From an uncultured Candidatus Saccharibacteria bacterium (lineage in GTDB: Bacteria > Patescibacteriota > Minisyncoccia > Phycocordibacterales > UBA1550): a stretch of 64,000 nucleotides of DNA. Below, in pieces: positions 11,188 through 47,311 of the stretch (position 1 is its first letter; each line of letters starts with the position of its first letter). The translations under genes and the position numbers were made by a program. The stretch is taken from contig CAZXOE010000005.1 in the NCBI GenBank assembly GCA_964642305.1, positions 13,369-77,368 of the forward strand, read 5' to 3'. Under the pieces are notes generated by a model. It worked only from the letters and a program-made list of their open reading frames with translations. It searched no databases and was not told where the DNA came from.

Positions 11188-11395
11188 CCCGACACGCTGT
11201 TAGTTTCCTTATTTTGTAGGAATATGTTATAATGTCTGTGTGAAAATGAGTATTAAAACCAACAAAGAGGCAGGTAATAAATCCTTTTCTGTTCGTAATC
11301 TAGACAAAGGGAGAATAAAAGCTCGCTCTTTTGATACCATAAGGACTTCTTTCTCTATTGAGGGAATCCGTTTTACTGACGAACGGTTTAATGAC

Positions 11396-11998
11396 CTAAA
11401 GACTGGTCATCTGCAAAAATAAACTCTCCATTAGTTTGTGCTCCTTTTGAGCAGCCTGCTGAACAGCAGCAATGTATGTTTTTAAATTTTTATCTAAAAT
11501 ACTAAAATCAAGCTCCTCCCCCGTCTTTGACAGATAAATCATATTCGTAAACAATCGTATTGTTCTTCCGTTCCCCTCTCTAAACGGATGTATGAACAGC
11601 AACTCAGCGTGCATCCTCGCAAGCTGAACAGGTAATTCATCATCTGGTACATTTTTAAGTGGATCTAAAAACTCAATCTCGAAATCCTGCATTAACTGGG
11701 GCAGGAATCCTGCGGACGGAAAGGAGAAGTTGTCTTTGGACATATTAACCGTCCTCAACTTTCCCGCAAAACTATATAATGTGCCAAAAGCATTTTTATG
11801 CAAATTATATAAATACCTAAGGTTAAATTGAATATCGTCAGTCAATTCATCGACCGCAATATTGTGAGCATTAACAAACCCAAGAAACTCTGCTTCTGCA
11901 ATCTCTTCTGGCGTGGTTAACCCTAGTAAATTTGGCAAAACCTCACCCCCTGCTTCATTGTCTGAAACGGTGTATTTGTTGATAGGCGGAGTAGTCAT
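11396..11998 (-). CDS. Fic/Doc family protein
   Basis: Fic motif HPFREGNGRTIRL. Confidence 0.8.
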   Translation of the reverse strand: MTTPPINKYTVSDNEAGGEVLPNLLGLTTPEEIAEAEFLGFVNAHNIAVDELTDDIQFNLRYLYNLHKNAFGTLYSFAGKLRTVNMSKDNFSFPSAGFLPQLMQDFEIEFLDPLKNVPDDELPVQLARMHAELLFIHPFREGNGRTIRLFTNMIYLSKTGEELDFSILDKNLKTYIAAVQQAAQKEHKLMESLFLQMTSL

Positions 11999-12060
11999 AC
12001 GAATTATTATACCCCCACACCTACTTTATTGATAGTCGAAAATTGGTGTGGGGGTATGCT
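11999..12060 (-). promoter_or_regulatory. Conserved upstream module: inverted repeat CCCCCACACC / GGTGTGGGGG plus TATAATAAT abutting the Fic ATG
   Basis: 25 nt ATTATTATACCCCCACACCTACTTT is identical to 45321-45345, which also abuts a start codon. Confidence 0.5.
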
Positions 12061-12089
12061 ACTTTCAAAAAAGGAAAGTAGGGGAAATC

Positions 12090-12122
12090 AAAAATACCGC
12101 ACGAATGCGGTATTCTTTTTTG
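12090..12122. terminator. Hairpin terminator
   Basis: AATACCGCA-CGAA-TGCGGTATT flanked by A and T runs. Confidence 0.7.
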
Positions 12123-12136
12123 CTCATAAACATGTA

Positions 12137-13054
12137 TCAAGCGTTACAACTCCCTCCGCTTTGCTGTTTAGGCATTGTTACTTTTGAGGCGATTTGCGCA
12201 TAACCAGTCGCGCTTGAATAATTAATCCCAAGCACTTCCTGTGGCGACACATCCTTCCATAGAACACCTTCATTTTTCATATAGGTTGCTATTGTTAGAT
12301 ACGTATCAGGAAACCAGTAGGAATTGACAACCAAGGCAGTCCTCCACATCTCCTGCTCACTCGCCCCTTGCGAAGCCATTAGTTCCAGTAGTCCGAGCAT
12401 TGCCATGCCATGATTGCAATCGGGAAAGTGTGTAGAGTTGCCACAACATGGTCTATATATCCCTCTCGACACTTTGTCCACAAGCGCCTGTTGCTCTGTT
12501 GTTAATTCAAAGAACACATGCTTGCTGTAGTGCTCCATAGCGTTCCCTTTTGAGAGCGTCCATCCGCCCGTTGAGGCAAAATTTCCAGCTCCACCATACG
12601 CAATGTCCGCCATTTCACCAGAATCCAAAATAGAATTTTTGCTTGCAAGACCAAGCGCCCAAAACAGATTAAGGAGATATCCAGCGTTGTCTTTCGTTAT
12701 TTTAAGATTACCATTGCTTTGCCCGAGAAGCAGAATTTCGTATTCATCTGTAAATACACCTCTCTGCTCGTACATCGCTTTGAACTTATCAGCGTCTATC
12801 GCTCCAACTTCAACAAGTTTTGAACCTAAATTACCCCACACTACTTGCAATGGAACCCCACCGTGTGGCAGCACTGTTTCCTTTGAAACATGCGTTTGTG
12901 TTTCTGCTACCACCGAGGCATATTTCTTCTGAATGCTCGACACACTACTAAACCCTCCGACGTACATTACGCCAGTAAAAATTACTGAGGCAATTACCAC
13001 ACTGGCAACGGTTGTTATGATGGGTGATATTTTGTTCTGTGTTTCGTTTTCCAT
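12137..13054 (-). CDS. Hypothetical membrane-anchored extracytoplasmic protein with a Cys/His-rich motif (RPCCGNSTHFPDCNHGMAM)
   Basis: 305 aa with an N-terminal TM. Confidence 0.45.
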   Translation of the reverse strand: MENETQNKISPIITTVASVVIASVIFTGVMYVGGFSSVSSIQKKYASVVAETQTHVSKETVLPHGGVPLQVVWGNLGSKLVEVGAIDADKFKAMYEQRGVFTDEYEILLLGQSNGNLKITKDNAGYLLNLFWALGLASKNSILDSGEMADIAYGGAGNFASTGGWTLSKGNAMEHYSKHVFFELTTEQQALVDKVSRGIYRPCCGNSTHFPDCNHGMAMLGLLELMASQGASEQEMWRTALVVNSYWFPDTYLTIATYMKNEGVLWKDVSPQEVLGINYSSATGYAQIASKVTMPKQQSGGSCNA

Positions 13055-23225: not shown

Positions 23226-24077
23226 TTACTTCCAGTCTACTGATATTGCTATGCTAAAAATCAGAAGAATTATGATCGAGTAGACAAACATCCTGCGCGC
23301 CCAAATTTTGTCGTTTGCTGAATAGAATCCACTTGCTGAAAGACTGAGCCAACCAAAACCAAACACAATCATTACTAAAAAATATGCGTACCCGGCGTAC
23401 CCAAATACTGGAAGCGCGAATAATGCCATCACAAATAGCGCAACATAAATCAATGTCTGCAGTTTGGTGATTTGAATTCCTTTTTTTACGGGGAGAACCG
23501 GGATTCCTGCTTTTTTATAATCTTCTAATCTATAGATGGCAATCGCAAACGAATGTGGCATTTGCCAGAGCGCGAGAATGAAAAACAAAATCACTGCGCC
23601 AAGGTCAATGCTTCCGCTCACCGCCAAATAGCCAACTACTGGAGGCATAGCTCCTGAAATACTACCAACTATAGTTCCGTGCGTTGAGGTGCGCTTGAGC
23701 CACCTACTGTACACAACAACATACACAAAGAGGCCGAGAATTGCCGCAAGTACCGCGAGAAGATTCGTATAAAAATATAAGATGAGAAGACCTAAAATCG
23801 CGAGAACCTTTCCAAAAACGAGCGCGTTTCGTGGAGAAATTGTCCCCATCACCAATGCGCGAGTTTTTGTACGCTCCATAAGTCCGTCTATGTCGCGGTC
23901 AATGTAGTTGTTCATCACACATCCAGAGGCAACCACGAGCGAAAGTCCTGCGAGTGTCGCGAGCATTAGCCACAAATCAATGTTTTTTCCCGAGGCAAGT
24001 AAAAAACCAGCAACAACAGTAATCGCATTGCCACTAATAATCCCCGGCTTGGTGAGTTGGTAATAGTCTTTAATCAA
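23226..24077 (-). CDS. cyoE: Protoheme IX farnesyltransferase (heme O synthase)
   Basis: UbiA-family motif NNYIDRDIDGLMERTKTR; sits downstream of cyoABCD. Confidence 0.85.
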   Translation of the reverse strand: MIKDYYQLTKPGIISGNAITVVAGFLLASGKNIDLWLMLATLAGLSLVVASGCVMNNYIDRDIDGLMERTKTRALVMGTISPRNALVFGKVLAILGLLILYFYTNLLAVLAAILGLFVYVVVYSRWLKRTSTHGTIVGSISGAMPPVVGYLAVSGSIDLGAVILFFILALWQMPHSFAIAIYRLEDYKKAGIPVLPVKKGIQITKLQTLIYVALFVMALFALPVFGYAGYAYFLVMIVFGFGWLSLSASGFYSANDKIWARRMFVYSIIILLIFSIAISVDWK

Positions 24078-24104
24078 ATTAGTAATGATACAGTTCGATA
24101 AAAT

Positions 24105-24377
24105 CTACTTCAAGGAAATCACCTGAATGCCTTTTTCTTGTATATCTTCCAACGGCCAAAATGCTGTCAATTCGTCAATTTTCCACCTGCCGACGTATCC
24201 AACTTTCTTTTCTATTTCTCTACCAGTATAGTTTTTTGTTATTGGGTCCCATTCCTTAAGGAGCAGATTGTCTCCTTCCTCAATATCAAAATCATTGAGG
24301 CGTAGCTCAAAAGTCTTTTTGTTCTCAAGTATTTGTTGAAAATATTCTGGCCAAACTTTTTTCTCTATTTTTTTCAT
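24105..24377 (-). CDS. Small ASCH/DUF3850-like protein inserted between cyoD and cyoE
   Basis: 90 aa; WPEYFQQILENKKTFELR resembles DUF3850 (recalled from memory). Confidence 0.4.
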   Translation of the reverse strand: MKKIEKKVWPEYFQQILENKKTFELRLNDFDIEEGDNLLLKEWDPITKNYTGREIEKKVGYVGRWKIDELTAFWPLEDIQEKGIQVISLK

Positions 24378-24383
24378 AATAAT

Positions 24384-24761
24384 TTACTGCGGAATATATC
24401 CCTCGTTTGAATTTGTGGGGGTCGCGTTCATCATATTGTAATTTAGATTTGCCATAACCCAAAGCGACCCAACGACAAGAATAGCAACGATGATAATTGT
24501 AAAAGTAAGGACGATTATATTCCACTGCGGTTTTGATTTTTTGCTTAAATGAAGAAAGAATATCACCTGCACCAAGAGTTGTGCGACACCAAAAAGAACA
24601 ACTGCCATAACTAAACTTTGCTTTCCAAACATATGATTGACAACAATAAAATATGGGATAAGCGTGAGTATTACAGACAGCGCAAACCCAGTCACGTAAG
24701 AGCGCATCGCAAAGCGACTAGCCTCGTATTGTTCATCAATTACTTTAAAATCATTTTTCAT
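24384..24761 (-). CDS. cyoD: Cytochrome o ubiquinol oxidase subunit IV
   Basis: Three-TM small subunit downstream of cyoC. Confidence 0.7.
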   Translation of the reverse strand: MKNDFKVIDEQYEASRFAMRSYVTGFALSVILTLIPYFIVVNHMFGKQSLVMAVVLFGVAQLLVQVIFFLHLSKKSKPQWNIIVLTFTIIIVAILVVGSLWVMANLNYNMMNATPTNSNEGYIPQ

Positions 24762-24765
24762 ATCA

Positions 24766-25362
24766 TTAAATAGCGCCCATTAGGTATACGAATGTGAAAA
24801 TAAATATCCACACAATATAAAGGAAGTGCCAGAATATGCCTAGGTTTGATATTTTGCCTATCGTCCTCACCGTTAACCCTCTTCTCAGCACCTGCGCAAG
24901 TATGCTCCACATCCAAACAAGTCCTGCTGTCACATGAAGTCCGTGCGTGCCAACTAGCGCAAAAAATCCCGACAAAAATCCGCTCACCTGCCAACTGCTT
25001 CCACTCTGATAAAGCTTCACGAACTCAGACAATTCCATTCCAATAAATGTTGCTCCGAACAAAAATGTCACAACCAACCAAAGAACCACTTTGTCCTTCT
25101 CGTTCTTATGATGCGCGTAAAACGACGCCAGTCCGTATGTGAAACTGCTTGCGAGAAGGACGAACGTTTCCGCAAGGACAAACGGCATACTAAATATGTC
25201 ACTTGCTGACGGCCCACCAAAGGTATTGTTGTGAAGCACAGTATATGTTGCAAAAATCGCGCCAAAAAGCAGAGCATCGCTCATAATATAGACCCAGAAA
25301 CCAAAGAGCGCCTTTGATTCTCTCTTACTTGTTTCTCTTGTGTTTAAAATTTCTGTAGTCAT
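24766..25362 (-). CDS. cyoC: Cytochrome o ubiquinol oxidase subunit III
   Basis: Heme-copper oxidase subunit III pattern; five TM. Confidence 0.8.
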
Positions 25363-27332
25363 AGTAATTGTAATTTTCTCTGTGGGTTTTTTGCTTCTAT
25401 TTTTGCGACCTCGTCCGCTGTTATCACATACTCAGTATCATAATCAAAAGAACGAACAATGATGAGCAAAACAACGCCAACTGCTCCTGCTACAGCAAGC
25501 CACCAAATATGCCATACTAAACCAAATCCAAAAAGAAATGCTGATAGTGCAACATAAAGCCCCATCGCTGTATTTTTTGGCATCTCAATATCCTCATAAT
25601 GAGCTTGCTCTTGCTTGGCTGTGCCGTGCTTCATATCCCAAAACGCGTGGCGTCCATGAACGGTTGGAATAATAGCAAAATTATAAAAAGGTGGCGGGGA
25701 TGCTGTAGACCATTCCAGTGTCCTGCCGTCCCACGGGTCGCCAGTCGTATCCAGATTGTGTCTTCGGTCACGTATACTAATAATGAGTTGTAATATCTGG
25801 AGCGCGACACCAATACCAATAATCACGACACCTGCCATAGAAATATAGAGCATCGGCTCCCATCCAGTCCCAGCATCTATGTGACTCAAGCGACGCGTCA
25901 TCCCCATTAGGCCTACAATATAAAGTGGAACAAATGTCACAAAGAAGCCGATTATCCAGTGCCAAAAAGCAGCCTTGCCCAGCCGTTCGCTCAACTTAAA
26001 GCCAAAAATCTTTGAAAACCAATATGTGAGACCAGCAAAATATCCGAACACCACACCACCAATAATAGTATTGTGAAAATGAGCAATTAAGAACAGGCTA
26101 TTGTGAAACTGAAAATCAGCAGCAGGAACAGATAGGAGTACGCCCGTCATTCCGCCGATAGTAAATGTAAAAATAAAACCAACCAACCAGAGCATCGGTG
26201 AAGCAAATACGATACTCCCGCGAAACATTGTGAAGAGCCAATTGAAAACTTTTACACCAGTAGGGATAGCGATGATCATCGTCATAATACCAAAGAACGC
26301 ATTTACGTTTGCGCCCGCGCCCATTGTGAAAAAGTGATGCACCCAAACCACAAATGACAAAAATGTAATAGCGATGGTCGCGTATATCATTGATGTATAC
26401 CCAAAAAGTTTCTTGCGTGAGAAAGTTGATACGACTTCAGAGAAGATACCAAATGCGGGCAATATTAGGATATAAACCTCTGGATGCCCCCACGCCCAAA
26501 TGAGATTCACATACATCATAGCGTTACCGCCAAAGTCCGATGTAAAAAAGTGCATTCCAAGAAGTCGGTCAAGGGATAGCATACCGAGTGTTGCTGTGAG
26601 AATTGGAAAAGTAATAATAACAAGCGCCATTGACGCAAAAACTGTCCACGTAAAAACTGGCATTCTCATAAGCGTCATCCCATGGCAACGCATCATAAGG
26701 ATAGTCACAAAAAAGTTTATACCCGACATCAAACTACCTACACCCGCTATTTGTAACGCCCAAATATAATAGTCTACACCTACGCCAGGGCTATACAATA
26801 TTCCAGAAAGTGGCGGATATGCGAGCCATCCAGTCGCAGCAAACTCTCCCACGACAAGTGATAGATTCACGAGCACTGCTCCAGCAACCGTGAACCAAAG
26901 ACTGAGCGAGTTAAGAAAAGGAAAGGCGACATCACGCGCGCCTATTTGTAGTGGCACAGCCAAGTTTATGAGCCCAAACATTAACGGCATAGCGACAAAG
27001 AAAATCATAATCACGCCGTGCGCTGTGAATATCTGGTCGTAATGCTCTGGTGGTAAATAGCCAAGTGAGTCACCGATTGACAACACCTGCTGTAAACGCA
27101 TCATCACTGCGTCAGAAAATCCGCGTAAAATCATTACGAAGGCGAGAATAATATACATCACACCTATTTTTTTGTGGTCTAAGGACGTGAGCCATTCTTT
27201 CCAAAGCCACTTCCATCGTTTGAAATAAAACAAAAGGCCGATAATACTGACACCAGCAACAGCCATAAAAATACCAGCTCCAACTGTAAGTGGTTCGTGA
27301 GGAAATGCTCCAAGTGTAAGGTTGCCAAGCAT
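25359..27332 (-). CDS. cyoB: Cytochrome o ubiquinol oxidase subunit I
   Basis: [17 protein letters not shown] and WAHHMF-type His ligands; 657 aa. Confidence 0.9.
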
Positions 27333-27344
27333 AAAATTATTATA

Positions 27345-28241
27345 TTACATGCGCATCTCAGGCATGGACATAGGAACTGACATTTCTCTAGGTATCATAT
27401 ATTTCATTATTATTTTATCATAAAGACTAACTTCAGTGGACGAATAATATGCAACGTTATTATTTCTGCTTTTTTCTGCAAGTTTTTCGTATTCATTAAA
27501 ATTTAAAGTGTCTGGTGACTGTTGTACAATTTGTAACCATTGATCAAATTCTTCCTGAGATGTCGCCTTTGCGATAAATTTCATTCCAGAAAAACCATAA
27601 CCACTATAGTTTGCAGACACTCCATTGTATTCTCCAGCCTCGTTCGCCATTAGATGAAGACTCGTATCCATTCCCGCCATAGCATATATCTGCCCAGCGA
27701 GTTGTGGAATCCAAAATGAATTCATTGGCGCGTCACCAGTGATTCTAAAATGAATAGGAGTATCAACAGGGAATGCTATAAAATTTACAGTTGCAATATT
27801 CTGCTCTGGGTAAATAAACAACCATTTCCACTCAAGTGCCACTACTTGTATCGTGATGGGTGGAATACTTGAATCAATAGGTTTGAATGGATCAAGCTCG
27901 TGGCTACTTACCCATGTCATCCTTGCAATAAATACAATAATTATTATTGGAATAGTCCACCAAATTATTTCAAGTGCATTATTGCTGTGCCAATCAGGAG
28001 TATATTTCGCTTTTGTGTTACTTGCGCGGTATCTCCAGGAAAAAACCGCGAGCATAATGAACACTGGAATGACCACAATTAACATTAGAAGTGTTGTCGT
28101 GACAATGAGATTCATCTCCGCGAGAGCAATAATGCCTTTTGGATTGAACACGCCCATATTGTGAGTGCTGATATAAACGTACAGAAACACAAAAAATACT
28201 AAAATAGCGACGAATAAAATCGCTCGCATATACTTTTTCAT
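27345..28241 (-). CDS. cyoA: Cytochrome o ubiquinol oxidase subunit II (quinol oxidase type, no CuA cysteines)
   Basis: NSFWIPQLAGQIYAMAGM...LHLMANEAG...GFSGMKF closely matches CyoA; lacks the CuA Cys motif. Confidence 0.85.
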   Translation of the reverse strand: MKKYMRAILFVAILVFFVFLYVYISTHNMGVFNPKGIIALAEMNLIVTTTLLMLIVVIPVFIMLAVFSWRYRASNTKAKYTPDWHSNNALEIIWWTIPIIIIVFIARMTWVSSHELDPFKPIDSSIPPITIQVVALEWKWLFIYPEQNIATVNFIAFPVDTPIHFRITGDAPMNSFWIPQLAGQIYAMAGMDTSLHLMANEAGEYNGVSANYSGYGFSGMKFIAKATSQEEFDQWLQIVQQSPDTLNFNEYEKLAEKSRNNNVAYYSSTEVSLYDKIIMKYMIPREMSVPMSMPEMRM

Positions 28242-29161: not shown

Positions 29162-29629
29162 CTACAAAATAGAACGAAGTAGCGGGATGCGACCTAGAAA
29201 TGAATTTTTGAGCATCCCGCTAAAACCAAACTCCTGCGCTGGTGTCCAGAGTGCGATAAGTACAAAGACTGCCGCATAAATAATATGCTCCTCAACAATG
29301 TATCCGTGAGTTACAGCTGGAAAATCATAATGTGGGAAATAATAAATGATCATAAGGAGAGCTCCGGCCCATGAAGCAACACGCACACCAACACCGAGCA
29401 AAAGAGCAACACCAATAAGTGTGATCGCCCATGGATTCACAAAATCAACCCATCCAATATTCATTGGGAGGGCAAACCATGAATAAAAACCTTGGAATGT
29501 CTTTGCATTAGTAAGAAAACCAAATGCGGAGAAATTTGGATTAAGAAGAATTCCAATACCATCAAAAAGCATAAACCATCCTAAAAGCATGCGGAGAGCT
29601 GTCGCTGAAATCTTTATTTTGGTGTCCAT
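29162..29629 (-). CDS. DoxX-family membrane protein
   Basis: About 4 TM and DoxX-like composition; adjacent to the cyo operon. Confidence 0.45.
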   Translation of the reverse strand: MDTKIKISATALRMLLGWFMLFDGIGILLNPNFSAFGFLTNAKTFQGFYSWFALPMNIGWVDFVNPWAITLIGVALLLGVGVRVASWAGALLMIIYYFPHYDFPAVTHGYIVEEHIIYAAVFVLIALWTPAQEFGFSGMLKNSFLGRIPLLRSIL

Positions 29630-29720
29630 ACGATAATAAATTATTAACTTATAACACCCTAATTATACTCCAGATTTTAACAAACAAAAAGCGATTCCGT
29701 CGTGTACTATTATTTTCTTG

Positions 29721-29739
29721 GCTGCGAGACCTGGATTCG
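29721..29739 (-). repeat. 19 bp direct repeat identical to the 3' end of tRNA-Gln (attR-like)
   Basis: GCTGCGAGACCTGGATTCG is identical to 31703-31721. Confidence 0.8.
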
Positions 29740-29850
29740 CCTCTCGCGTTGCTACTCTCGAAACCTACGTCACTGTTCCAGGAACCGAATTTGCTAATTC
29801 GTCTTCGAGGACTGCGGCCCGCGGTTCGAATTCGTACACTCGCGTATACC

Positions 29851-29880
29851 AAAAAACACTAGCCCCTGCTAGTGTTTTTT
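29851..29880. terminator. Perfect bidirectional terminator hairpin
   Basis: AAAAAACACTAGC-CCCT-GCTAGTGTTTTTT. Confidence 0.8.
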
Positions 29881-29990
29881 GGTATGACTGGCAGTCCTGA
29901 ATGATATTCGCACACTACACACAAATATGGACGCAGAATTCCAGCACACAATACGACTCGTGCGTCATATTACCCAGGTGTGTACAAAAT

Positions 29991-30185
29991 CTAATCCAGA
30001 AGAGAGGCCTTTCTACTAGAGGCACGTCTTTGCTCACTAGGTAAGGCTTTGGAGAGCTGTGTGTACAGGTGGATCAAGCGGAAGGTCATTTCACTTGCCT
30101 CTGTAATTGAGAGCGTTTCACCGGTATCTTCTCGGTAGATTTCTATAAATTCCTGGAGCTCAGCCTCGCTTAATTTCATGACCAT
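29991..30185 (-). CDS. Small hypothetical protein within the Fic islet
   Basis: 64 aa ORF. Confidence 0.3.
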   Translation of the reverse strand: MVMKLSEAELQEFIEIYREDTGETLSITEASEMTFRLIHLYTQLSKALPSEQRRASSRKASLLD

Positions 30186-30276
30186 CTAATACTAGTCAAC
30201 CTCCTGCATGCAACATAGACGAGAGTATTTGCCAGCGAGGCTGGCTATCGCCCCAAAGCAATCAGCCTAGTGAATA

Positions 30277-31467
30277 TTATTTTTTATTCAGCGAAGCAGG
30301 GATGAAACCATTCTGTTCAAGAACGTGCATCACCCCACGCAGGAGATAATTATTCGCAAAACCGATGGTGTAGATTCTCCCTCCCTTTTTGAGCGGCATC
30401 AGCATCTGTTTTTCCTTAAGCTTTTTAATGATACGCGAGCGCTGCACCGATGACTCTTGCCCGATAATACTTTCGAGGCTACTTGATTTAATGCACATCT
30501 CGGGGGCCTTCACAACTGCACTCAGGATTGCGAATTCTCGCTTAGTGATGTGCTCGCGTTCGAGCGCATATGAAAGTACCGGAAGTAAAATATGTGGGAC
30601 CATGTACGATAGGTCGAGCAACTTGTCGATCTTCTCGATCTCACTTCTCAAGCCACCGAGTACATAGAGGCACCATGCGAGAGTGTTATCACGCTCCCCG
30701 GAGTCTGCTGAAGCGAGCATCTCATAATATTTATCACGATCCATACAGAATATTGCCGTTGGATTTATGATGCGACCATTCTTAACCTGAAATCCCTGCT
30801 TGATTAAAAGTGCATAGGTAAACATTCTAATTAATCGCCCATTACCATTATCAAATGGATGGATCCATGCCATCCGGTGATGTGCAAGGGCAGTAGCAAG
30901 CAAATGATATTGAGTTGCATTTTGGTCGTTGACGAATGCCAATAGTTCGTCAAAGTACTCCTGAACTTTTACGGGACTAGGTGGAACATGCACTGACCCA
31001 CTGATGGATACATCTATTGGCCGCAGGATGCCAGGGTAGCGTGATCCCTCACCTCCTGGAGGTGGAGTAAGTCCATTAACAAGTATCTTGTGAATTTCAG
31101 AAATGAGCGCTCGGTCAAAGACCGTTTTTTTGGTTACGTTCTCATCTATAAAATCAATAGCCTGCTCAATGTTGTAGATTTCCTTGAGACCTTCATCCCC
31201 TGCTTTTTTTGAGGGGTTCTCAATAATCTTTTCCACGAATTCTGCCAGTGTCGTATTGTTCCCCTCTATGCGGGCAGAACCAAGACTTTCAAATATCTGA
31301 AAAATATCCTTCAACTGGAAAAATATGTATGGCGGGACAGGGCCACCGAGCTTTTTCACTCGGAGTTTTTCAAGCTCAATAATGACACCGGCGAGCGAAG
31401 ACCCCCAATCCGGGTCGTAGAGCCGAAGAGGTATTTCTTTGTGCAACTTTTTATTTACCATATTCAT
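30277..31467 (-). CDS. Fic family protein, class II (N-terminal inhibitory helix SxxxEG plus Fic core)
   Basis: Fic motif HPFDNGNGRLIRM; upstream SARIEGN matches the (S/T)xxxE(G/N) inhibitory motif. Confidence 0.8.
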   Translation of the reverse strand: MNMVNKKLHKEIPLRLYDPDWGSSLAGVIIELEKLRVKKLGGPVPPYIFFQLKDIFQIFESLGSARIEGNNTTLAEFVEKIIENPSKKAGDEGLKEIYNIEQAIDFIDENVTKKTVFDRALISEIHKILVNGLTPPPGGEGSRYPGILRPIDVSISGSVHVPPSPVKVQEYFDELLAFVNDQNATQYHLLATALAHHRMAWIHPFDNGNGRLIRMFTYALLIKQGFQVKNGRIINPTAIFCMDRDKYYEMLASADSGERDNTLAWCLYVLGGLRSEIEKIDKLLDLSYMVPHILLPVLSYALEREHITKREFAILSAVVKAPEMCIKSSSLESIIGQESSVQRSRIIKKLKEKQMLMPLKKGGRIYTIGFANNYLLRGVMHVLEQNGFIPASLNKK

Positions 31468-31703
31468 TTTGCTTATTTATCACATTAAAGCATATTCGCT
31501 ATATTATGCAATACATTATGAACGTATAGAAAATCTATTATTTAACAACTCAACCAAATTTATGTAGCTAGCGCTATGTGGCGCTTTTAACATCAGGCTC
31601 GATTCTCAAGCAGCCTCCCCTAAATTTGCAAATCATGAAATCCCCTTATCTCACTTCACTATTTTGAGTTTGTGGTGAGAATGTGCCAATTAGGCAAATT
31701 TAG

Positions 31704-31774
31704 CTGCGAGACCTGGATTCGAACCAAGATAGCGCCCTCCAGAGGGGCGAGTCCTACCATTAGACGATCTCGCA
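31704..31774 (-). tRNA. tRNA-Gln (anticodon CTG)
   Basis: Cloverleaf on the reverse complement: acceptor TGCGAGA/TCTCGCA, anticodon loop CTCTGGA, T-loop GGTTCGAATCC. Confidence 0.8.
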
Positions 31775-31865
31775 ATTACATTGTTATTCCACAATGTAGC
31801 GTCACAATACCCCAAAACCTGCGTTTTTTCAAGCGCGAATAATAACAATTACATTACTGACTGCC

Positions 31866-31911
31866 TATTCGGTACTATAATACCAAATAGGCAGTCAGTG
31901 GATTTGTTTAA
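31866..31911. promoter_or_regulatory. 14 bp perfect inverted repeat bracketing TACTATAAT, upstream of tRNA-Gln
   Basis: ACTGACTGCCTATT ... AATAGGCAGTCAGT. Confidence 0.4.
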
Positions 31912-31934
31912 TTTCATTAATCCACAAACGAGGT

Positions 31935-32249
31935 TTATGCAGATAAATCCATCATATCAAGGACATTCCAGCCACCAGATTTTAGATTTTGTATTGCGCT
32001 AGTGACACTACTCTGATCATCCCCGTATATCTTGAATGTCTGTTTGCTACTATTTACCACAACTACCATTTCAAAGGTTTCATTGTTAAGCTTTTTTAAT
32101 TTTACGCTCTTTCCTTTAGCTTTTACATTTCCCTCTATAACACCAGGAGAAACCTCTACACCGGCTTTTTTCAGAAGTTTTAAAATATCCTTGGAGCCCT
32201 CAATAACTGTCGTATGAGAGCCCCTTTCGTTGATGTGCATTTTTTCCAT
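31935..32249 (-). CDS. Hypothetical protein
   Basis: 104 aa ORF. Confidence 0.35.
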   Translation of the reverse strand: MEKMHINERGSHTTVIEGSKDILKLLKKAGVEVSPGVIEGNVKAKGKSVKLKKLNNETFEMVVVVNSSKQTFKIYGDDQSSVTSAIQNLKSGGWNVLDMMDLSA

Positions 32250-40911: not shown

Positions 40912-41047
40912 TATGGAGCCGATGTCCGGGGGCTCACTGCTCGCTCGCAGGCTCGCTTCGCTTTAGAAACCCACGGTTTCTAACTTTTTCCTCCACGGGA
41001 AACTCCCGTTTCCCGACCCCTTCCCAGGTTCAATCCCGGACATCGGC
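40912..41047 (-). other. tRNA-derived hairpin element of about 135 nt: 13 bp terminal stem copied from the tRNA-Thr T-arm and acceptor, internal GNRA-capped hairpins, 3' CCA
   Basis: Minus-strand 5' GCCGATGTCCGGG ... CCCGGACATCGGC-TCCA 3'. Internal CGGGAAAC-GGGA-GTTTCCCG and TTAGAAACC-GTG-GGTTTCTAA hairpins. Confidence 0.45.
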
Positions 41048-41051: not shown

Positions 41052-41087
41052 CAAATAGATAATTCTTAATTACGAATTATCTATTGG
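41052..41087 (-). terminator. Hairpin immediately 3' of tRNA-Thr(GGT)
   Basis: AATAGATAATTC-TTAATTAC-GAATTATCTATT. Confidence 0.6.
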
Positions 41088-41094
41088 AGCCGAT

Positions 41095-41170
41095 GTCCGG
41101 GATTGAACCGGAGACCTCGTCCTTACCAAGGACGCACTCTACCAACTGAGCTACATCGGCTTATATTTTA
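41095..41170 (-). tRNA. tRNA-Thr (anticodon GGT), CCA encoded
   Basis: GCCGATGTAGCTCAGTTGGTAGAGTGCGTCCTTGGTAAGGACGAGGTCTCCGGTTCAATCCCGGACATCGGCTCCA. Confidence 0.85.
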
Positions 41171-41554
41171 TTCTCACAGTATAGACAGACGTAGTGTTCA
41201 TGCTTACCTACCAAAACAGCTACATCGGCTTACTATACACCACGACACGATACACTATTTAGCGCATTCTTTCAATCAAAATGATAGCAAAAAGGTCCGG
41301 ATTATCGGATCTTTTGCTACTCCGTCACTTTTATCAACTTTGAGTTACGAAACTCAGGTATTCCTCGTATCGTCTTTGCGAACGAAGTGAAGCAATCTAG
41401 AATTAAGCACGCTACACACTGGATCACTTCGTCAGAGTACCTCCTCGTGAGGACGGAAGAATCAGAGTTTCGTAATTCAAAGTTTATCAAAGCTAAACCT
41501 TGATAAAAGTTTAACAAACTTACGAGAAAGACTTCATTGGGGATAGTATTATTT

Positions 41555-41891
41555 ATTAGCGACGTAGACGAATCACCAGATTCGCGTCTTGGACGAAGAT
41601 AAAAAAGTAATCTTTTTCAGTACTGAGCCGAGGAGCTAATATATGGAGTACCATATAATGACGGCACTCGGACGTTGTGAAAGAGATTACTCATTCACAC
41701 GCTCCTCGTTTGTCATTATAGGTCAATACCGCGTGGTCTCAGCGTCCAAGACGTGAATTTGCTAATTCAGCCACGCTTTTGTACTCGACCTTTAGGTCAT
41801 TCTGGTGAATGAGAAGCGAATTCGAAGTATTTTAGGTCCAAGACCCGAATCTACTGATTCGCCTGCAGTCTCTGCCGCAGGGGCCTATATT
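41555..41891 (+). repeat. Copy A (long form, 337 bp) of a three-copy structured repeat family
   Basis: Shares blocks ATTAGCGACGTAG, GAGCCGAGGAGCTAATATA, GCGAATTCGAAGTATT and the terminal hairpin ...TCTCTGCCGCAGGGGCCTATATT with copies at 46840-46998 and 63598-63757. Confidence 0.8.
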
Positions 41892-41912
41892 CGTTGCCCG
41901 TTGCAGTGTTAG

Positions 41913-44840
41913 CTAGAACATTCGGTACTTTATTTTTACAGAACTTCTAGCGCTACACGATGCGGAGCCTGCACCACCAGAGCCAGAGCATGTCCACATC
42001 CATGTCCCCCCATTATCAGAAGGGGTGGAATTACCAGCTGTTGTCGTACAAAGATTTGCAGTCGGCACTGTTGGTGTAGGAGTACCATGAGCGCTACCGC
42101 AAACGCCAGTGATATAACTTAAATTATAAACACGACATAGTGCGTTTGACCCTGTTCCACTATTATTTATTGCCATGCAACCCCATTCATAATACTGAGA
42201 TGTACCTGCTCCCGTAACTGCTGTAGGGGTACCATAGGAGCATAAGTTTGACGTAGGAGCTGTAAAAGAAGGAGTGTCCTCCGCGCTTCCGCACACGCCA
42301 TTTCTAGCAGTGGTGAACGAAACTTCTAGAGAATACCCTGTGCCATGCGAATTTGTTGCGTATCCACGCACGTAATATGTTGTTCCCTGCTGTAGCCCTG
42401 TTACGTTTATTGAATATGCTCCAAGTGTTGCTGGAGGCGCAGGTGTACAAGTTGCGCCGTTTGTATGACTAGGATTATTCATTATCCCATAGCAAACACC
42501 ACGCGCAGAAATTGATGGTGGGGTACGCTTGTGTAAATAAATCTTATTTTTTGGTGAACCTCCCTGGTAATATATTGATTTGCCATCTGGAGAAATTTGC
42601 ATTCCAGAAGTGAAAGAAGCAGAAGCACGGTTGTGCTCATACACAGGAGAAGTGGTGTCTATGCTTCCATCTGCTATACCTCTACGAAAAACAAAGATTT
42701 TGTCGAGAGATAGAAGATCACCAAACCCAAACCCGTAAACAGAATTTCCATCTGGAGATATTTTTATATTATCTATATTTCTACCTAAATTATAACTAGT
42801 TCCACCAGAAAGCAATCCTGTTGTTGTGTCGCGTGAGAACCTAGCTACCGCATTATAAATATTACCACCAATGTTAAGATAATCAGGATCATAAAATGGA
42901 TACACATATTTATCATCTGGTGAAACATAGACTTCCATGCTTGTAGGACGAGGCGCATCGGGGTAAAACACGAAAGTCCTGCCAGAAATCGTGCCAGTAA
43001 TTTGATTTCTAATGAACCTCCAAATCCTACTTGGAGGAGCACCTGATTCGTAATTTGCAGTATACAACGATTTACCATCTGATGAAAATGCGATATCACG
43101 CGCATACGCGGCCATAGTTGAAATATCAATAGTATTGCTCTCATTAGACAATGAACCATCAGCTAAATTTCGTGTACGCAATCTAAGCTTTCCCATGCTA
43201 GAAGTATCAGCAGATGTATATAAATGACTCCCGTCTGGAGATACAATAACCTCATGCGCTACATCAGTTGTTACGTAGGCAATCCTATTTGATAGTGTCC
43301 CATTATTTATATTCCTATCATATTTAACGATATATCTGCCCGTACCACCGGCAATAGAACACCCCGCATACACGTTCTTTCCGTCTGGTGATATAGTGAT
43401 AGGATTATTTATACCAATCGTGCAATTTCCTATATCATAGTTGGAAACATAGGTAAGCTCACCAGATTCATTTCTGTTGTATAAATATATCCCAGCTCTC
43501 TGGTTTGTTACATCGCCAATTGTTACTACATAAAAATGCTTTCCATCTGGCGAAGTAGCATTTGCTTGCAAACTTTCGTTAGTTGTTGCCAATGGTACAG
43601 TATACTCAATATATGGTTCCACCAGCTCCCCGCTGTAAGCTCCAAACGAGGTAACCTCCGCGCCGAGTGTTGCCGTGGTGGCTTTAATATATGTGCTTGT
43701 TGCGTTTATTACTGTAGGCAAAAGAGAAGTCTCTATGACATTTATGCTCGTCCATTCTCCGCAGTTGTTGTCTTCGGCTGTTGCAGGAGATTCAGTAATG
43801 ACACCTCCGCCAGCTGAAGCTGTTTTATCAGCGCACGACCTCACATAATACATACCACCTTCAGTAAATGTGTATGTTGTTGAAGATGCCACAGCGCTTG
43901 TGCCCGCGCCTAGAGCTGGCATTGTTTTAGGAGCAAGGTCGGTAATCGTGCCAGTCGTACTAGTAGCCACCTGAAAGAAATTTGGGAAACTCCCCCCAGT
44001 TGCCCCTGTGCCACTATTTGTTATGGCTGAATAAAAAAGTGTCGGCGAGTCAGTGATTACATTCACAGGGTACGAGGAACCCGCCGTGAGGTCTATATTT
44101 GTGGCTACATAGATACCATTAAAGGTAATCATACCACCAGAAGAAAGAGTGAGAGTTTCTGTTGCAGGTGTTGCGTATCCTGCAACATTCCCCCATGTTA
44201 TTGTGTATGTTCCTGTTGGCTTTGAGGTTGAAGTTTGAGAAGTGCCAGAGCCTGTGATTGTTGCTGGGCCAGTGATGGTCCAAGAGGATGAGATGTTTGA
44301 GGAGACGGATACGGTGCCGGTAGGAGAAGCAACTGTGATAAGGATACTAGAACTTCCGTCAAATCTAGGACTTAAATCATTAACCAGGCAGTCTGGGTCC
44401 TCTGCAGGACACCGTGGGTCACCAGCCCTTTTATAGTAGCTATCTAAATTAATAACATATGCGCCTGGAGTCATTGGAGCAGTAAGTACACCTGAGTGAA
44501 CCAATGTAACAGGATTAGGATTATACGGATGAGATAGAATATCTTCCATATTTTCTAAGTATGCATAATTCCCTTGAAGGGTCACGTAAATAGAATAATA
44601 ATAAAGAAGCTCTATTGGAATAAGTGTAGATAATGAACTGGTAAGATAAATATTTTCTCCTGGAGAAAATATTGTTTTGTTTATATTAACAGTGTAACTA
44701 TTTACATTAGTACCAAGGTAAGGATCTGTGCCCCAATAGGTTACCGCACCCACATCCTCAACTGCTACAATAAAAAACAATAAGGTAAGAAAAGTTGTTA
44801 AAAAGAATGACTTTGTTGTTTTTGTTAGTAGATTCTTCAT
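41913..44840 (-). CDS. Giant secreted surface protein: signal peptide, Ig-like domain shared with the 50058..51221 protein, YVTN-type beta-propeller repeats, Cys-rich C-terminus
   Basis: 975 aa. SPDGK/SSDGK..Y repeats. About 60 aa (SSSWTITGPATITGSGTSQTSTSKPTGTYTITWG) is near-identical to the paralog. Confidence 0.7.
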   Translation of the reverse strand: MKNLLTKTTKSFFLTTFLTLLFFIVAVEDVGAVTYWGTDPYLGTNVNSYTVNINKTIFSPGENIYLTSSLSTLIPIELLYYYSIYVTLQGNYAYLENMEDILSHPYNPNPVTLVHSGVLTAPMTPGAYVINLDSYYKRAGDPRCPAEDPDCLVNDLSPRFDGSSSILITVASPTGTVSVSSNISSSWTITGPATITGSGTSQTSTSKPTGTYTITWGNVAGYATPATETLTLSSGGMITFNGIYVATNIDLTAGSSYPVNVITDSPTLFYSAITNSGTGATGGSFPNFFQVATSTTGTITDLAPKTMPALGAGTSAVASSTTYTFTEGGMYYVRSCADKTASAGGGVITESPATAEDNNCGEWTSINVIETSLLPTVINATSTYIKATTATLGAEVTSFGAYSGELVEPYIEYTVPLATTNESLQANATSPDGKHFYVVTIGDVTNQRAGIYLYNRNESGELTYVSNYDIGNCTIGINNPITISPDGKNVYAGCSIAGGTGRYIVKYDRNINNGTLSNRIAYVTTDVAHEVIVSPDGSHLYTSADTSSMGKLRLRTRNLADGSLSNESNTIDISTMAAYARDIAFSSDGKSLYTANYESGAPPSRIWRFIRNQITGTISGRTFVFYPDAPRPTSMEVYVSPDDKYVYPFYDPDYLNIGGNIYNAVARFSRDTTTGLLSGGTSYNLGRNIDNIKISPDGNSVYGFGFGDLLSLDKIFVFRRGIADGSIDTTSPVYEHNRASASFTSGMQISPDGKSIYYQGGSPKNKIYLHKRTPPSISARGVCYGIMNNPSHTNGATCTPAPPATLGAYSINVTGLQQGTTYYVRGYATNSHGTGYSLEVSFTTARNGVCGSAEDTPSFTAPTSNLCSYGTPTAVTGAGTSQYYEWGCMAINNSGTGSNALCRVYNLSYITGVCGSAHGTPTPTVPTANLCTTTAGNSTPSDNGGTWMWTCSGSGGAGSASCSARSSVKIKYRMF

Positions 44841-44843
44841 TTA

Positions 44844-45320
44844 TTATTTTCTTAATACGCTAATACTCACCTGTGACTTCGCTGAATCTACATCGGAGTC
44901 ATAACTAATGGTCACATTAATATCATTACTTTCTTTTGTGCCATAGATAGAGGAAAGTTTTTCACTCTCGTATTTATTAGAAATATTCCACTGTTGTTTT
45001 TCAAAAAAACCAGTGTAGAGTGCGTAATTTTCTTTAACTGTTTTTGTGGAAAGAAAAACGATAGTGAGTTGCTTTTGACCAACATAATTCAAGCTATAGC
45101 TTTGTTTTAAATTTACCCCTTCCTCAACAGGTATATCTGTTGGAAAATCATTTGGTGCTTTTGCACCAAAATCTGTTCTTTTTGGCACTATATTTGTTGC
45201 AACATCATTTGTAGCTACATTTTTATTTTTTTCACTCCAAGAATACAGCAACAATGTAGCAACTACCAGTATGGCAATCCCAGATATGACAAGCAAGATA
45301 TTTCTATAATTCATTAACAT
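44844..45320 (-). CDS. Small membrane-anchored protein, paralog of 51218..51670
   Basis: 158 aa with an N-terminal TM; about 60% identical to the 150 aa paralog; lies 3 bp upstream of the giant protein gene. Confidence 0.6.
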   Translation of the reverse strand: MLMNYRNILLVISGIAILVVATLLLYSWSEKNKNVATNDVATNIVPKRTDFGAKAPNDFPTDIPVEEGVNLKQSYSLNYVGQKQLTIVFLSTKTVKENYALYTGFFEKQQWNISNKYESEKLSSIYGTKESNDINVTISYDSDVDSAKSQVSISVLRK

Positions 45321-45440
45321 TATTATACCCCCACACCTACTTTTTGCCTACTAGAGTTATCCACAAAGATAAATATATAAATGCGAATATAGTTTGTGAC
45401 TACAAAATCAATATGTAAAAGTAGGTGTGGGGGTGTACCC
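45321..45440 (-). promoter_or_regulatory. Second copy of the conserved upstream module: 17 bp inverted repeat CCCCCACACCTACTTTT / AAAAGTAGGTGTGGGGG plus TATAATAAT abutting the ATG
   Basis: First 25 nt are identical to 11999-12023. Confidence 0.5.
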
Positions 45441-45579: not shown

Positions 45580-45654
45580 CGCGGTCGACCGGACTTGAAC
45601 CGGCAACCTCTCGCGTGACAGGCGAGTGCTACTAACCAGTTGAGCTACGACCGC
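45580..45654 (-). tRNA. tRNA-Asp (anticodon GTC)
   Basis: Acceptor GCGGTCG/CGACCGC, anticodon loop CTGTCAC, T-loop TTCAAGT, discriminator G. Confidence 0.8.
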
Positions 45655-46334
45655 AAATTCTTAAATTTGCCATATTTTTCAAACACAGCCTTCTTCCTAT
45701 CAAGAAAAAGCTTGTTCTTTGTATGACTTCTATGATTATACATAAAATCATAGAATTTCAAAGAGTCTTTTGTGCCAAACTGCAGACGGTAGCAATTTTC
45801 CTTTGGCTGGAAAATCGACCCTCCTTCAATGCCATAAATATTGAGCCTTTTGCGTATACTTTCTAAAAATACTTTTGAACACGAGGTTAATGCCACTTGA
45901 ATGGCAAGGCCTTGAGTTTCCCTCTCTTTATGAGTCACCCCAACCCAAACATTTCCATCACCATCAAAGTATCCTCTGACGAAATCAGAAAAATATTTTT
46001 GAGGGATGATTGGAACGACCAGATTTTTTGTTTTTCGCTCAGAGAAGCCAAGCTCTCTCAAATCCTCACACATCTCAATACTTCCAATCTGTAAACGATA
46101 AAGCGTGCTTTCATTTCCCCGCATAACACGAGTACTAATTTTGTGTTCCGACTGGATAGCTTTACGTATTTGCTCAAGAAGCTTTTTGTCAGTTATTTGA
46201 ATGCACCAAAATTGTCCACCTCGCTTGTTAACAGTAATGTACCCGTCAGCTGCAAAAAAACCTAGCACGTATGACATTTCTGGTGTCCATTTTTTAAAAA
46301 AACCTTTGTTTACTTTTTTTAATACTGGCACCAA
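45645..46334 (-). CDS. LAGLIDADG homing endonuclease (two motifs), free-standing; its 3' end overlaps the tRNA-Asp 5' end by 10 nt
   Basis: LGFFAADGY and RGYFDGDGN motifs. Confidence 0.8.
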   Translation of the reverse strand: MVPVLKKVNKGFFKKWTPEMSYVLGFFAADGYITVNKRGGQFWCIQITDKKLLEQIRKAIQSEHKISTRVMRGNESTLYRLQIGSIEMCEDLRELGFSERKTKNLVVPIIPQKYFSDFVRGYFDGDGNVWVGVTHKERETQGLAIQVALTSCSKVFLESIRKRLNIYGIEGGSIFQPKENCYRLQFGTKDSLKFYDFMYNHRSHTKNKLFLDRKKAVFEKYGKFKNLRS

Positions 46335-46474: not shown

Positions 46475-47311
46475 TTAATATTTCTTCTTTACGGCATCAA
46501 TTAGCCCAAGTATCTCATATTTAAGTCTTGAACTTCTTCTTACCTTTAGTGACAAAATACCATAATATGAATCATAATTCTCATAAATCTTTTTTTGATT
46601 CATTTTTAAGAACACCTGATTACCAAACTGTGACTCAGGTAACTGTAACAGAGAAGACCAATATTTGACAACTTTTTTTATTCTTGGGCGGTGAATATCA
46701 TTAATAAATATTCTTGGCATAAAATCTTCATCATTCAGCTGAAACACTTTTTTGAACCACTTTTTCATCACAAGGATGATTTCTGGGTCAGAATTAACAA
46801 TTGCAAGAGCACTTCTATCACTCTTTGTACCCTCGCCCCAATATAGGCCCCTACGGCAGAGACCGCAGGGTAATACTTCGAATTCGCTTCGCTCATACAA
46901 AAGCGTGGCAGAGACCACGCGGTATTGACCTATATTAGCTCCTCGGCTCGGTGCTGAAAAAGATTACTTTTCCAGCACTCTCGCTCTACGTCGCTAATAA
47001 AGACCAACTCCTAGCATCAGTAAGTCTCTTTCTGTCATACGTCCCACAGTTTCTAAGGATTTCTTTTTACTGGCGCTCACGATATCCTGCTTTTTCTTGC
47101 GATTCATTTCAGCACCTATCATCCTGCCTTTATGCCCTGCAAGGATGGAACTCTGTCTAAGTCTACTCGTCTGTTTCTGTGTTAACACAACGCCCTGACA
47201 CCAAATACTTGCGGTTCCTTTTGATACGCCAACATGCTTAGCAATCGATCCTATGCTCCATCCCATTCTTCTTAATTTTTGAGCCCTAATCCTTTCTATG
47301 AACTTAGCCAT
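46475..47311 (-). pseudogene. HTH plus single-motif LAGLIDADG endonuclease gene split by insertion of repeat copy B
   Basis: ORF 46994..47311 ends ...LLMLGVGLY*, with the stop supplied by the repeat. ORF 46475..46918 resumes ...GLYWGEGTKSDRSALAIVNSDPEII. Joined, this gives a LAGLIDADG-like motif LGVGLYWGEGTK. Confidence 0.6.
46840..46998 (-). repeat. Copy B (short form, 159 bp) of the structured repeat family, inserted within a gene
   Basis: The reverse complement aligns block by block with copy C. Confidence 0.8.

Follow-up and report, generated by a model that had tools for sequence, protein, structure and literature searches.

A Fic gene cassette with a large serine recombinase remnant at the 3' end of tRNA-Gln in a Candidatus Saccharibacteria contig, and a tRNA-end mini-element beside it

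The window, a stretch of 64,000 nucleotides from an uncultured Candidatus Saccharibacteria bacterium (NCBI GenBank assembly GCA_964642305.1, contig CAZXOE010000005.1, positions 13,369 to 77,368 of the forward strand), contains a Fic gene cassette directly behind tRNA-Gln(CTG). Read in the orientation of the tRNA, the cassette consists of a leader, the Fic gene with its own upstream region, a small open reading frame (ORF) named orf64 and, on the opposite strand, the final 43 codons of a large serine recombinase (LSR) gene (Table 1). Its edges read ...GCAGC/ and /CATACC, the slash marking the junction. Behind it stand a palindromic hairpin and a short element that ends in a second copy of the tRNA-Gln 3' end. 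The GC content was 0.43-0.47 in this islet and 0.38-0.41 in the flanks. These values lie inside the range of the window, and a compositional anomaly was ruled out on this basis.

Table 1. Features of the tRNA-Gln locus, listed in the orientation of the tRNA
Feature	Position in the window	Strand	Description and basis
tRNA-Gln(CTG)	31703-31774	-	ARAGORN; Rfam 31704-31774, 53.8 bits; compared with tRNA-Gln in relatives; B (left) arm of the insertion site
Proximal repeat copy	31703-31721	-	tRNA-Gln 3' end
Fic cassette, 1,815 bp	31702-29888		bounded by the final tRNA-Gln base (...TCTCGCAGC) and by the putative native terminator of the tRNA (CATACCAAAAAAC...)
Cassette leader, type A	31594-31702	-	begins directly after tRNA-Gln
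Fic upstream region	31468-31593	-	accompanies the Fic gene in unrelated genomes; blastn boundaries
Conserved box TGTTAAATAAT	31537-31547		upstream of Fic; invariant alignment columns
Conserved box TGATAAATAA	31473-31482		upstream of Fic; invariant alignment columns
Fic gene, 396 aa	30277-31467	-	PF02661, E 2.8e-15
orf64, 64 aa	29991-30185	-	small helical protein, conserved
LSR gene remnant, final 43 codons (LAVLNDIRTLHTNMDAEFQHTIRLVRHITQVCTKSNPEERPFY) and stop	29888-30016, with stop to 30019	+	tblastn E 3e-10 against the L101 LSR
P-arm site, first 24 nt of the remnant (CTGGCAGTCCTGAATGATATTCGC)	29888-29911	+	site comparison
Palindromic hairpin, 40 nt (CATACCAAAAAAC...TTTTTTGGTATAC)	29846-29885		putative native tRNA-Gln terminator (B' arm)
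Mini-element core, 110 nt	29740-29849	-	GAACCGCGGGCCGCAG - hairpin - CGTAGGTTTCGAG - N9 - GCGAGAGGC
Distal copy of the tRNA-Gln 3' end, C56 to CCA	29719-29739	-	21 nt, TGGCTGCGAGACCTGGATTCG

An earlier, sequence-only reading had described the segment as a Fic islet bounded by a 19-bp direct repeat of the tRNA-Gln 3' end, an attachment (att) signature with no integrase. The repeat itself was recovered: GCTGCGAGACCTGGATTCG occurs at 29721-29739 and 31703-31721, on the + strand in both cases, identical to the tRNA end and in the same orientation, with no third match in the window at up to 3 mismatches. In 100 shuffles, two or more matches were never reached. Since the ARAGORN and Rfam coordinates put tRNA-Gln at 31703-31774, the repeat corresponds to the final 19 nt of the tRNA, from C56 of the T-loop. 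The window tRNA-Gln reads GCAGC/TAAATTTG (GCAGC/TAAA) and does not encode CCA. The distal copy does encode it (TGG on the + strand), as does the tRNA-Gln of three of the relatives, which are designated here by L numbers (L051, L013 and L011).

For the distal region (29719-29850), a tmRNA, a tRNA-like gene and a decayed duplicate of tRNA-Gln were discarded: the 19-mer has no tRNA similarity upstream of it, the ARAGORN result was empty and the fold z-scores were -1.5 and -0.3. Rfam searches at gathering and permissive thresholds gave nothing but the tRNA in 29500-32000.

Of the contents listed in the sequence-only reading, the class II Fic protein, the 64-aa ORF and the hairpin were confirmed; the LSR remnant and a repeated element of 110 nt had been overlooked. 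Its statement that no recombinase is present holds for a working enzyme: a full LSR gene (Resolvase, Recombinase and Zn_ribbon_recom domains) was not found in the window, only the final 43 codons of one.

The hairpin at 29846-29885 is read as the native tRNA-Gln terminator, displaced by the cassette, based on its palindrome and on the relatives. It is comparable to GCAGC/CATACAAAAAGCC...TTTTTGTATG in L051 and also to the corresponding sequences of L009 and L007. Likewise, the sequence behind the window remnant, CATACCAAAAAACAC...GTGTTTTTTGGTATAC, resembles the native post-tRNA-Gln terminators of L051 and L009. The promoter and terminator scan did not flag this hairpin, the T-run of which is part of the stem.

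The tRNA-Gln site in relatives and the tRNA-end mini-element

The organism of the window is a Paceibacteria/Yonathbacteria-like bacterium of the candidate phyla radiation (CPR). The gene order PyrG, PD-(D/E)XK nuclease, (104-aa gene), tRNA-Gln ... CyoA, CyoB was found to be common to nine relatives, namely L007-L014 and L051, except that the stretch retrieved from L011-L014 does not reach the cyo genes. The DNA homology of the relatives to the window breaks exactly at the tRNA-Gln 3' end, at 31703. Behind it, L009 shows no cargo and only 86 bp to the next conserved gene, L007 carries MsrAB, L013 AbiEi/AbiEii and L051 a SIR2-like protein, while L008 carries MazF, a MazG-like protein, NERD and a fusion of a Schlafen-type helicase with an S24 peptidase. 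Because the content differs in almost every relative, the tRNA-Gln 3' flank represents a hypervariable hotspot, mostly of defence and toxin genes. The empty tRNA-Gln site that the sequence-only reading had suggested looking for was seen in L007, L009 and L051, where a terminator composed of an A-run, a hairpin and a T-run stands directly behind the tRNA; other cargo was found in L008, L013 and L051.

The cytochrome o ubiquinol oxidase operon of the window is complete at 23226-28241 (CyoABCD and a UbiA-family heme O synthase). It is kept in several relatives; in a reduced, CPR-type lineage such as this one, an operon of this kind is unusual.

The Fic unit itself was found at the same site in L098, a Yonathbacteria metagenome-assembled genome (GCA_001823535.1), in the order tRNA-Gln, Fic (91% amino acid identity), orf62, LSR remnant, hairpin terminator, CyoA. 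The window and L098 units share 78% DNA identity over 1,908 bp, ending at window position 29872, and L098 was found to be without the distal tRNA fragment. With L098 and a further locus, L101, both considered, the homology of the Fic unit breaks off at 29872-29894, which leaves about 150 bp up to the distal repeat.

Upstream of its Fic unit, L098 shows a pile-up of tRNA-Gln pieces (6221-6460). A fragment of the 5' part (6221-6238) is followed by the complete gene (6320-6391), by a scar of 17 nt that resembles the N-terminal side of the LSR, and by a partial 3' copy at about 6424-6460, the variable region of which matches the tRNA-Gln allele of another lineage (as in L011). The site thus seems to have undergone repeated events.

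The distal repeat and the 110 nt adjoining it form a mini-element, the family of which measures about 100-130 nt and of which three copies were detected: in the window (29719-29849), in L009 (860-955, behind tRNA-Thr(GGT) and its terminator) and in L014 (1596-1695, behind tRNA-Met and its terminator). At its start, every copy has the 3' end of the adjacent tRNA in inverted and degenerate form, in the window that of the tRNA-Gln T-arm and acceptor end. Every copy ends with a direct copy of its own tRNA 3' end from C56, perfect for Gln and Met and with one mismatch for Thr. The tRNA-end copies lie about 110-125 bp apart in L009 and L014, with no cargo between them; in the window, the distance after subtraction of the Fic unit is 148 bp. 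A 27-nt hairpin module is inserted in the window core, and the hairpin of the core shows one compensatory change among the three aligned copies. The nhmmer E values ranged from 1e-20 to 3e-16, and these were the only copies in about 1.3 Mb searched. No match was obtained in Rfam or, with two patterns of the mini-element, in IMG/VR.

Since the cargo-free copies duplicate their own tRNA ends, the 19-bp repeat is a hallmark of the mini-element and is independent of the Fic cassette. Judged by the architecture, the insertion of the mini-element probably predates that of the cassette. A T-loop-targeting integrase could have left it as an attP-only scar, or it could be a small element that is non-autonomous. 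In CPR genomes it may represent a new kind of small element, mobile or structured.

The role of the repeat as the att boundary of the Fic islet was not upheld by these data. In that explanation, a tyrosine integrase would have inserted a 2-kb island into the T-loop/3' end of tRNA-Gln, the two 19-mers being attL and attR, and the integrase would have been lost later. A perfect direct repeat of 19-21 nt starting in the T-loop, with a distal copy that keeps the native CCA, is indeed the textbook signature of such an event. Nevertheless, this origin is highly improbable. No Phage_integrase domain or remnant was found in the ORFs of the islet or in the approximately 40 Pfam-scanned ORFs of the window, which covers 64 kb of a 164-kb contig. 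The homology of the Fic unit with L098 and L101 stops before the distal repeat, and the distal repeat with its 110 nt recurs cargo-free behind tRNA-Thr and tRNA-Met as a member of a separate family. Moreover, the remnant that is present belongs to a serine and not to a tyrosine recombinase, and an LSR leaves no long direct repeat. L098, with the Fic unit at the same site and no distal repeat, provides the synteny without the repeat that the sequence-only reading had itself named as evidence against it. A direct repeat of a tRNA end beside foreign DNA need not delimit that DNA; here, two unrelated insertions are probably nested.

A strongly structured element of 130 nt (fold z-scores -6.3 and -4.8) was also observed between tRNA-Thr(CGT) and tRNA-Thr(GGT), at 40917-41047. 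At its termini, the tRNA-Thr(GGT) 3' end stands in inverted copies of 13 nt. The same 3' end forms a direct repeat of 16-17 nt at 40917-40932 and 41087-41102, and a 5' fragment of tRNA-Thr lies at 41208-41232. This element, which contains CGTGGGTTTC, may be a diverged relative of the mini-element.

The serine recombinase family and its junctions

Intact LSR genes were found in the related loci L101, L103, L104, L107, L108 and L013. In L101, three units stand in tandem, carrying a gene of unknown function, an AAA_15 ATPase and a Fic protein of 91% identity, each followed by an orf64-like gene and the remnant of the LSR. An intact LSR of 537 aa, with Resolvase, Recombinase and Zn_ribbon_recom domains, converges with the last unit. 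The remnant recurs after every earlier unit of L101, and it was also found after orf62 in L098. A metagenome scan with the remnant peptide gave four loci: L103 and L104 with intact LSRs, L106 with a remnant followed by a terminator, and L105, apparently the L098 locus in a second assembly. L107 and L108 were added by look-ups of LSR homologues, and in L107 the intact gene is followed, 430 bp further on, by a second remnant. The LSR family gave 7,920 matches, mostly outside the CPR, with Proteobacteria among the named ones. In IMG/VR no match was obtained with either the remnant or the full LSR, and a viral origin was discarded.

In L013 the LSR (41% identity, Pfam-confirmed) abuts tRNA-Gln, and its ORF runs through the tRNA in antisense. 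This ORF (10709-12760, 587 aa) has an inverted copy of about 130 nt of its own 3' region just upstream of its start. The inverted copy comes with the true C-terminus (...SETWLCLLNKIRTFYQNNPTAD), and inversion of the segment would restore a gene of normal length; L013 may therefore hold an invertible recombinase segment. A second, larger serine recombinase (576-596 aa) was observed 8-10 kb from the LSR-family gene in L107 (86-1816) and L108 (299-2089). The cargo between the two recombinases is variable and comprises an Eco57I/BsuBI restriction-modification system, UmuDC and helix-turn-helix (HTH)/M78 pairs.

When read in the tRNA orientation, all junctions break after CAGC, in six combinations of arms. 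The tRNA arm is joined to a leader in the window and L098, to the terminator in the empty sites, and to the N-terminal side of the LSR in L013 as well as in the 17-nt scar that follows the full tRNA in L098. The remnant arm (...CAGC) is joined to leader A or leader B in L101, to the N-terminal side in the intact LSR genes, and to the terminator in the window, L098 and L106. In L101, the first 54 nt of leader A recur behind the remnant arm; counted with 16 nt of the core, the identity is 90% over 70 nt. In the intact genes, 9-12 of 15 positions agree between the remnant arm (TCCAGGACACTCAGC in L101) and the tRNA end TCCAGGTCTCGCAGC, and the P-arm site of the window matches the tRNA-Gln 3' end at 10 of 15.

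These junctions show what is expected of an LSR element, namely a precise break at a short core, no long duplication of the target, and empty sites (L009, L007 and L051). The junctions remnant/N-terminal side (intact genes), tRNA/N-terminal side (L013) and remnant/terminator (window, L098 and L106) would also be compatible with a gene split by integration, but a complete element with both halves was not recovered. The window has kept both the tRNA/leader and the remnant/terminator junctions, and the L101 array ends in an intact LSR, as is the case for cis-mobilizable elements (CIMEs).

Based on the anatomy, junctions and homologies observed, it is probable that two independent insertions took place at one tRNA-Gln, and that the Fic cassette is a CIME-like, non-autonomous remnant or cassette of an LSR-type integrative element. 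An LSR of this family would have put the unit 31702-29888 between tRNA-Gln and its terminator at a time when the mini-element (about 130 nt, 29719-29849) had already duplicated the last 19-21 nt of the tRNA. The attachment site of the LSR would lie inside its own 3' coding region and resemble the tRNA-Gln 3' end, and recombination at this intragenic site would leave the C-terminal fragment of the LSR at one end of the insert. Because the window copy is without the rest of the LSR gene, the cassette is decayed or non-autonomous. It would either have decayed or have been moved in trans by a full-length LSR, such as those seen beside tRNA-Gln (L013) and beside arrays of units (L101). The sequence-only reading had named the same pair of options, a decayed integrative element or a cargo mobilised in trans, and its placement of a site-specific insertion at the very 3' end of tRNA-Gln is also borne out. 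The restored empty site would read ...CCAGGTCTCGCAGC joined to CATACCAAAAAACACTAGC, and the circular cassette would read ...ATCATTCAGGACTGCCAG joined to TAAATTTGCCTAATTGGCAC.

Several points weigh against this origin. Recombination was not observed directly and the evidence is comparative. It comes from few loci (the window, L098, L101/L102, L103, L104, L106, L107, L108 and L013), several of which are metagenomic contigs whose host is not known. The likeness between the LSR site and the tRNA end is modest and lies inside coding sequence. Typical LSRs recombine only attP with attB, so mobilisation in trans of remnant/leader sites is not established. The first origin of the core/leader junction is unexplained, and leaders A and B may be diverged copies of one junction. 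The order of the two insertions follows from the architecture only. Finally, the cassette shares 78-79% DNA identity with L098 and L101 and is about as diverged as the host genes; the insertion may be ancient and the unit now immobile.

Alternatively, Fic and orf64 could be old, vertically inherited residents of the tRNA-Gln/cyo interval that were lost in most relatives, the remnant being the fossil of one ancient event. In favour of this, the values for the unit between the window and L098 (91% for the Fic protein, 78% for the DNA) are close to those of PyrG (92%), the PD-(D/E)XK nuclease (82%) and CyoB (88%). Such an immobile history is unlikely, as the unit is absent from the site in L007-L014 and L051, which are about equally distant, and the window and L098 differ in their leader (A and B, respectively) and in the scars of tRNA fragments. 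In addition, a Fic unit stands beside an intact LSR in L101, and the interval holds different cargo in almost every relative.

The units could also form an integron-like system in which circular cassettes are actively excised and inserted either into the site of the LSR gene, which is thereby restored while arrays are built, or into its tRNA-Gln mimic; the window copy would then be functional. This is possible but doubtful. For both leader types, the same leader is found at exactly one position whether the tRNA arm or the remnant arm precedes it, and the three units of L101 stand in series before an intact LSR. The additional L107 remnant and the open reading frames of the remnants, with the conserved peptide kept to the stop codon in six of eight copies, are also in line with it. 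However, repeated integration, decay and accretion give the same pattern, as for CIMEs (PMC5704250), leaders A and B may have a single origin, and circle junctions were not seen. The conservation of the remnants could also be explained by their overlap with the end of orf64 and with a conserved DNA site.

On the level of the family, we tentatively suggest that these LSRs carry an intragenic att site mimicking tRNA-Gln, that integration splits or re-tails the gene, and that cassettes, the window one among them, are shuffled in trans between the LSR gene, where integron-like arrays of defence and toxin genes would be built, and tRNA-Gln; this, too, is offered with considerable reserve. A literature search found no LSR described with an intragenic att site or with a tRNA-Gln target, which is not proof of novelty. 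If true, an intragenic att site with cassettes carrying the LSR 3' end would constitute a serine-recombinase analogue of the integration of Sulfolobus spindle-shaped viruses (SSV) and of integron-like capture, and possibly a tool for tRNA-directed integration.

Three known systems can be compared with the preferred reading of the cassette as the remnant of an LSR-type element. In archaeal integration of the SSV type, attP lies within the integrase gene and a tRNA is the target; the enzyme is a tyrosine recombinase and the identity to the tRNA extends over 44 bp. Here as well, an attachment site in the recombinase ORF would resemble a tRNA segment and integration would split off the C-terminal part. 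Unlike SSV, the recombinase is a serine enzyme, the resemblance is limited to 9-12 of 15 positions, the crossover follows the discriminator and the hosts are bacterial (CPR). Integron cassettes are also small single-gene units in series beside a recombinase gene, with a recurring short-core junction. Here, no IntI tyrosine integrase was found (attI and attC were not searched for) and the cargo has its own promoter, so that the resemblance is a functional analogy only. Recombinase-less units that keep their att junctions (CIMEs) and tandem accretion at the att sites of integrative and conjugative or integrative and mobilizable elements have been described (Pavlovic 2004, Bellanger 2011, reviewed in PMC5704250). 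As in CIMEs, the window unit has no recombinase and has both junctions at a specific site, L101 shows decayed tandem units beside a functional element, and any mobilisation would be due to a related recombinase, in cis or in trans (PMC5704250). In contrast, the CIMEs described mostly depend on tyrosine recombinases and have flanking direct repeats, whereas here the recombinase is an LSR, no flanking repeat is present and each unit carries the final 43 codons of the recombinase gene.

The tRNA-Gln hotspot and the LSR family would together offer a reduced CPR (Yonathbacteria-like) genome a route for the gain of toxin and defence genes; the same LSR family is also widespread in Proteobacteria.

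The Fic protein and orf64

The Fic protein matched CccR (PDB 7XUX) with E 1.3e-98 over residues 13-390 and the PADLOC SoFic model with E 3.9e-39 over residues 55-366. The Fic motif HxFx(D/E/N)GNGRxxR is present as HPFDNGNGRLIR, aligned with HPFGNGNGRTVR of 7XUX, and the class II inhibitory motif SARIEGN in the N-terminus is identical in 7XUX. A DNA-binding domain at the C-terminus is supported by the 7XUX alignment, which extends to residue 390, and by a weak AbiEi-like match at residues 307-375. By its sequence, the protein is thus assigned to the CccR/SoFic-like class II family. Homologues of 70-91% identity were found in Nitrotoga, Liptonbacteria, Moranbacteria, Falkowbacteria and a nanoarchaeon, where the gene stands alone in unrelated loci, with neither a tRNA nor a 64-aa partner. 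An upstream region of 50-125 bp with the invariant boxes TGTTAAATAAT and TGATAAATAAT travels with the gene; we infer that the boxes are a promoter/operator for autorepression by the DNA-binding domain at the C-terminus.

In Yersinia pseudotuberculosis, CccR is an effector secreted by the type VI secretion system (T6SS) that AMPylates FtsZ at Thr8, a residue reported to be conserved only in Enterobacteriaceae, and that represses its own promoter through the operator AGATAATCAT-N26-ATGATAATCT (PMC9755527). The window protein is similar to CccR in its full-length homology and in the repeated boxes with an ATGATAA-like core upstream of its gene. It differs in that the boxes are direct repeats about 64 nt apart, whereas the CccR operator is an inverted repeat with a 26-bp spacer, and in its host, a CPR bacterium in whose 64 kb no T6SS genes were seen. 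With SoFic it shares the two-domain class II architecture, the PADLOC match and the location, a hypervariable island with defence and toxin genes in relatives. The direct similarity to SoFic structures is weak (E about 3e-5).

By homology, the cargo would be a class II AMP-transferase and a toxin under autoinhibition, which probably uses the C-terminal domain to repress its own promoter and arrests growth once activated, for instance in abortive infection. AMPylation and a role in toxicity or phage defence are suggested by the cases of CccR (PMC9755527) and Sofic (PMC12249575). This interpretation agrees with the defence and toxin genes that relatives carry at this hotspot.

A further Fic protein of 200 aa, unrelated to that of the cassette, is encoded at 11396-11998 (-). 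It matched the PADLOC candidate PDC-S04 (E 2e-57) and NmFic/VbhT-type NCBIfam models.

For orf64, only three database relatives were retrieved, and profile searches (Pfam, NCBIfam, PADLOC and PHROGs) gave no match. The AlphaFold model is a two-helix hairpin (pLDDT 81), for which Foldseek found nothing in the PDB at E <1. It could be thought that orf64 is the antitoxin of Fic and that this is why the two travel together: EcSofic has a downstream antitoxin of 47 aa, AS1 (PMC12249575), and orf64 follows Fic on the same strand after 91 bp. Such a pair is very unlikely. Seven Fic homologues of 77-91% identity occur in other contexts without orf64, and orf64-like genes also stand behind other cargo, such as an AAA_15 ATPase, an HTH protein or DUF4411/M78, and in all cases they converge with the LSR 3' end (L101, L103, L104, L107 and L108). 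Unlike AS1, the small ORF accompanies the recombinase and not Fic, and the AS1-like role was ruled out on this co-occurrence. Because it converges with the LSR 3' end whatever the cargo, orf64 is placed in the recombinase module.

Other repeats and genes of the window

The 14-mer GAATTTGCTAATTC, noticed earlier inside the islet and in a repeat copy elsewhere, was found at 29787-29800 and 41755-41768. The first copy lies one base off the position given for it before (29786-29799). The finding is borderline, as two matches were reached in 1 of 100 shuffles. A GC-rich, structured family of intergenic repeats (ttattagcgacgtagagcgag...gagctaatata...) occurs at 41540-41900 (+), 46840-47010 (-) and 63590-63750 (+). 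The copy at 41.7 kb has two additional hairpin modules of about 28 nt (GTCCAAGACnnGAATnTnCTnATTC). This module is also present inside the mini-element of the islet (29777-29800) and beside a copy of the tRNA-Asp 3' end in L009 (530-566).

A free-standing ORF for a LAGLIDADG homing endonuclease lies between tRNA-Met and tRNA-Asp (45645-46334 (-)), its stop overlapping the 5' end of tRNA-Asp. At 46475-47311 (-), a neighbouring 105-aa HTH ORF and a 147-aa ORF are parted by a copy of the repeat family; the two may derive from a single gene that was disrupted. The stretches 44110-45330 and 50602-51690 form large, diverged direct repeats with 77-82% identity, which cover the ends of two gene pairs that are paralogous (975 aa with 158 aa, 387 aa with 150 aa). 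An Rfam match to isrJ at 57390-57461 (+), of 38.1 bits against a threshold of 37, falls in a region of repeated pilin genes and is probably spurious. A stand-alone GIY-YIG ORF of 84 aa (58229-58483 (-)) was observed among the type IV pilus genes.

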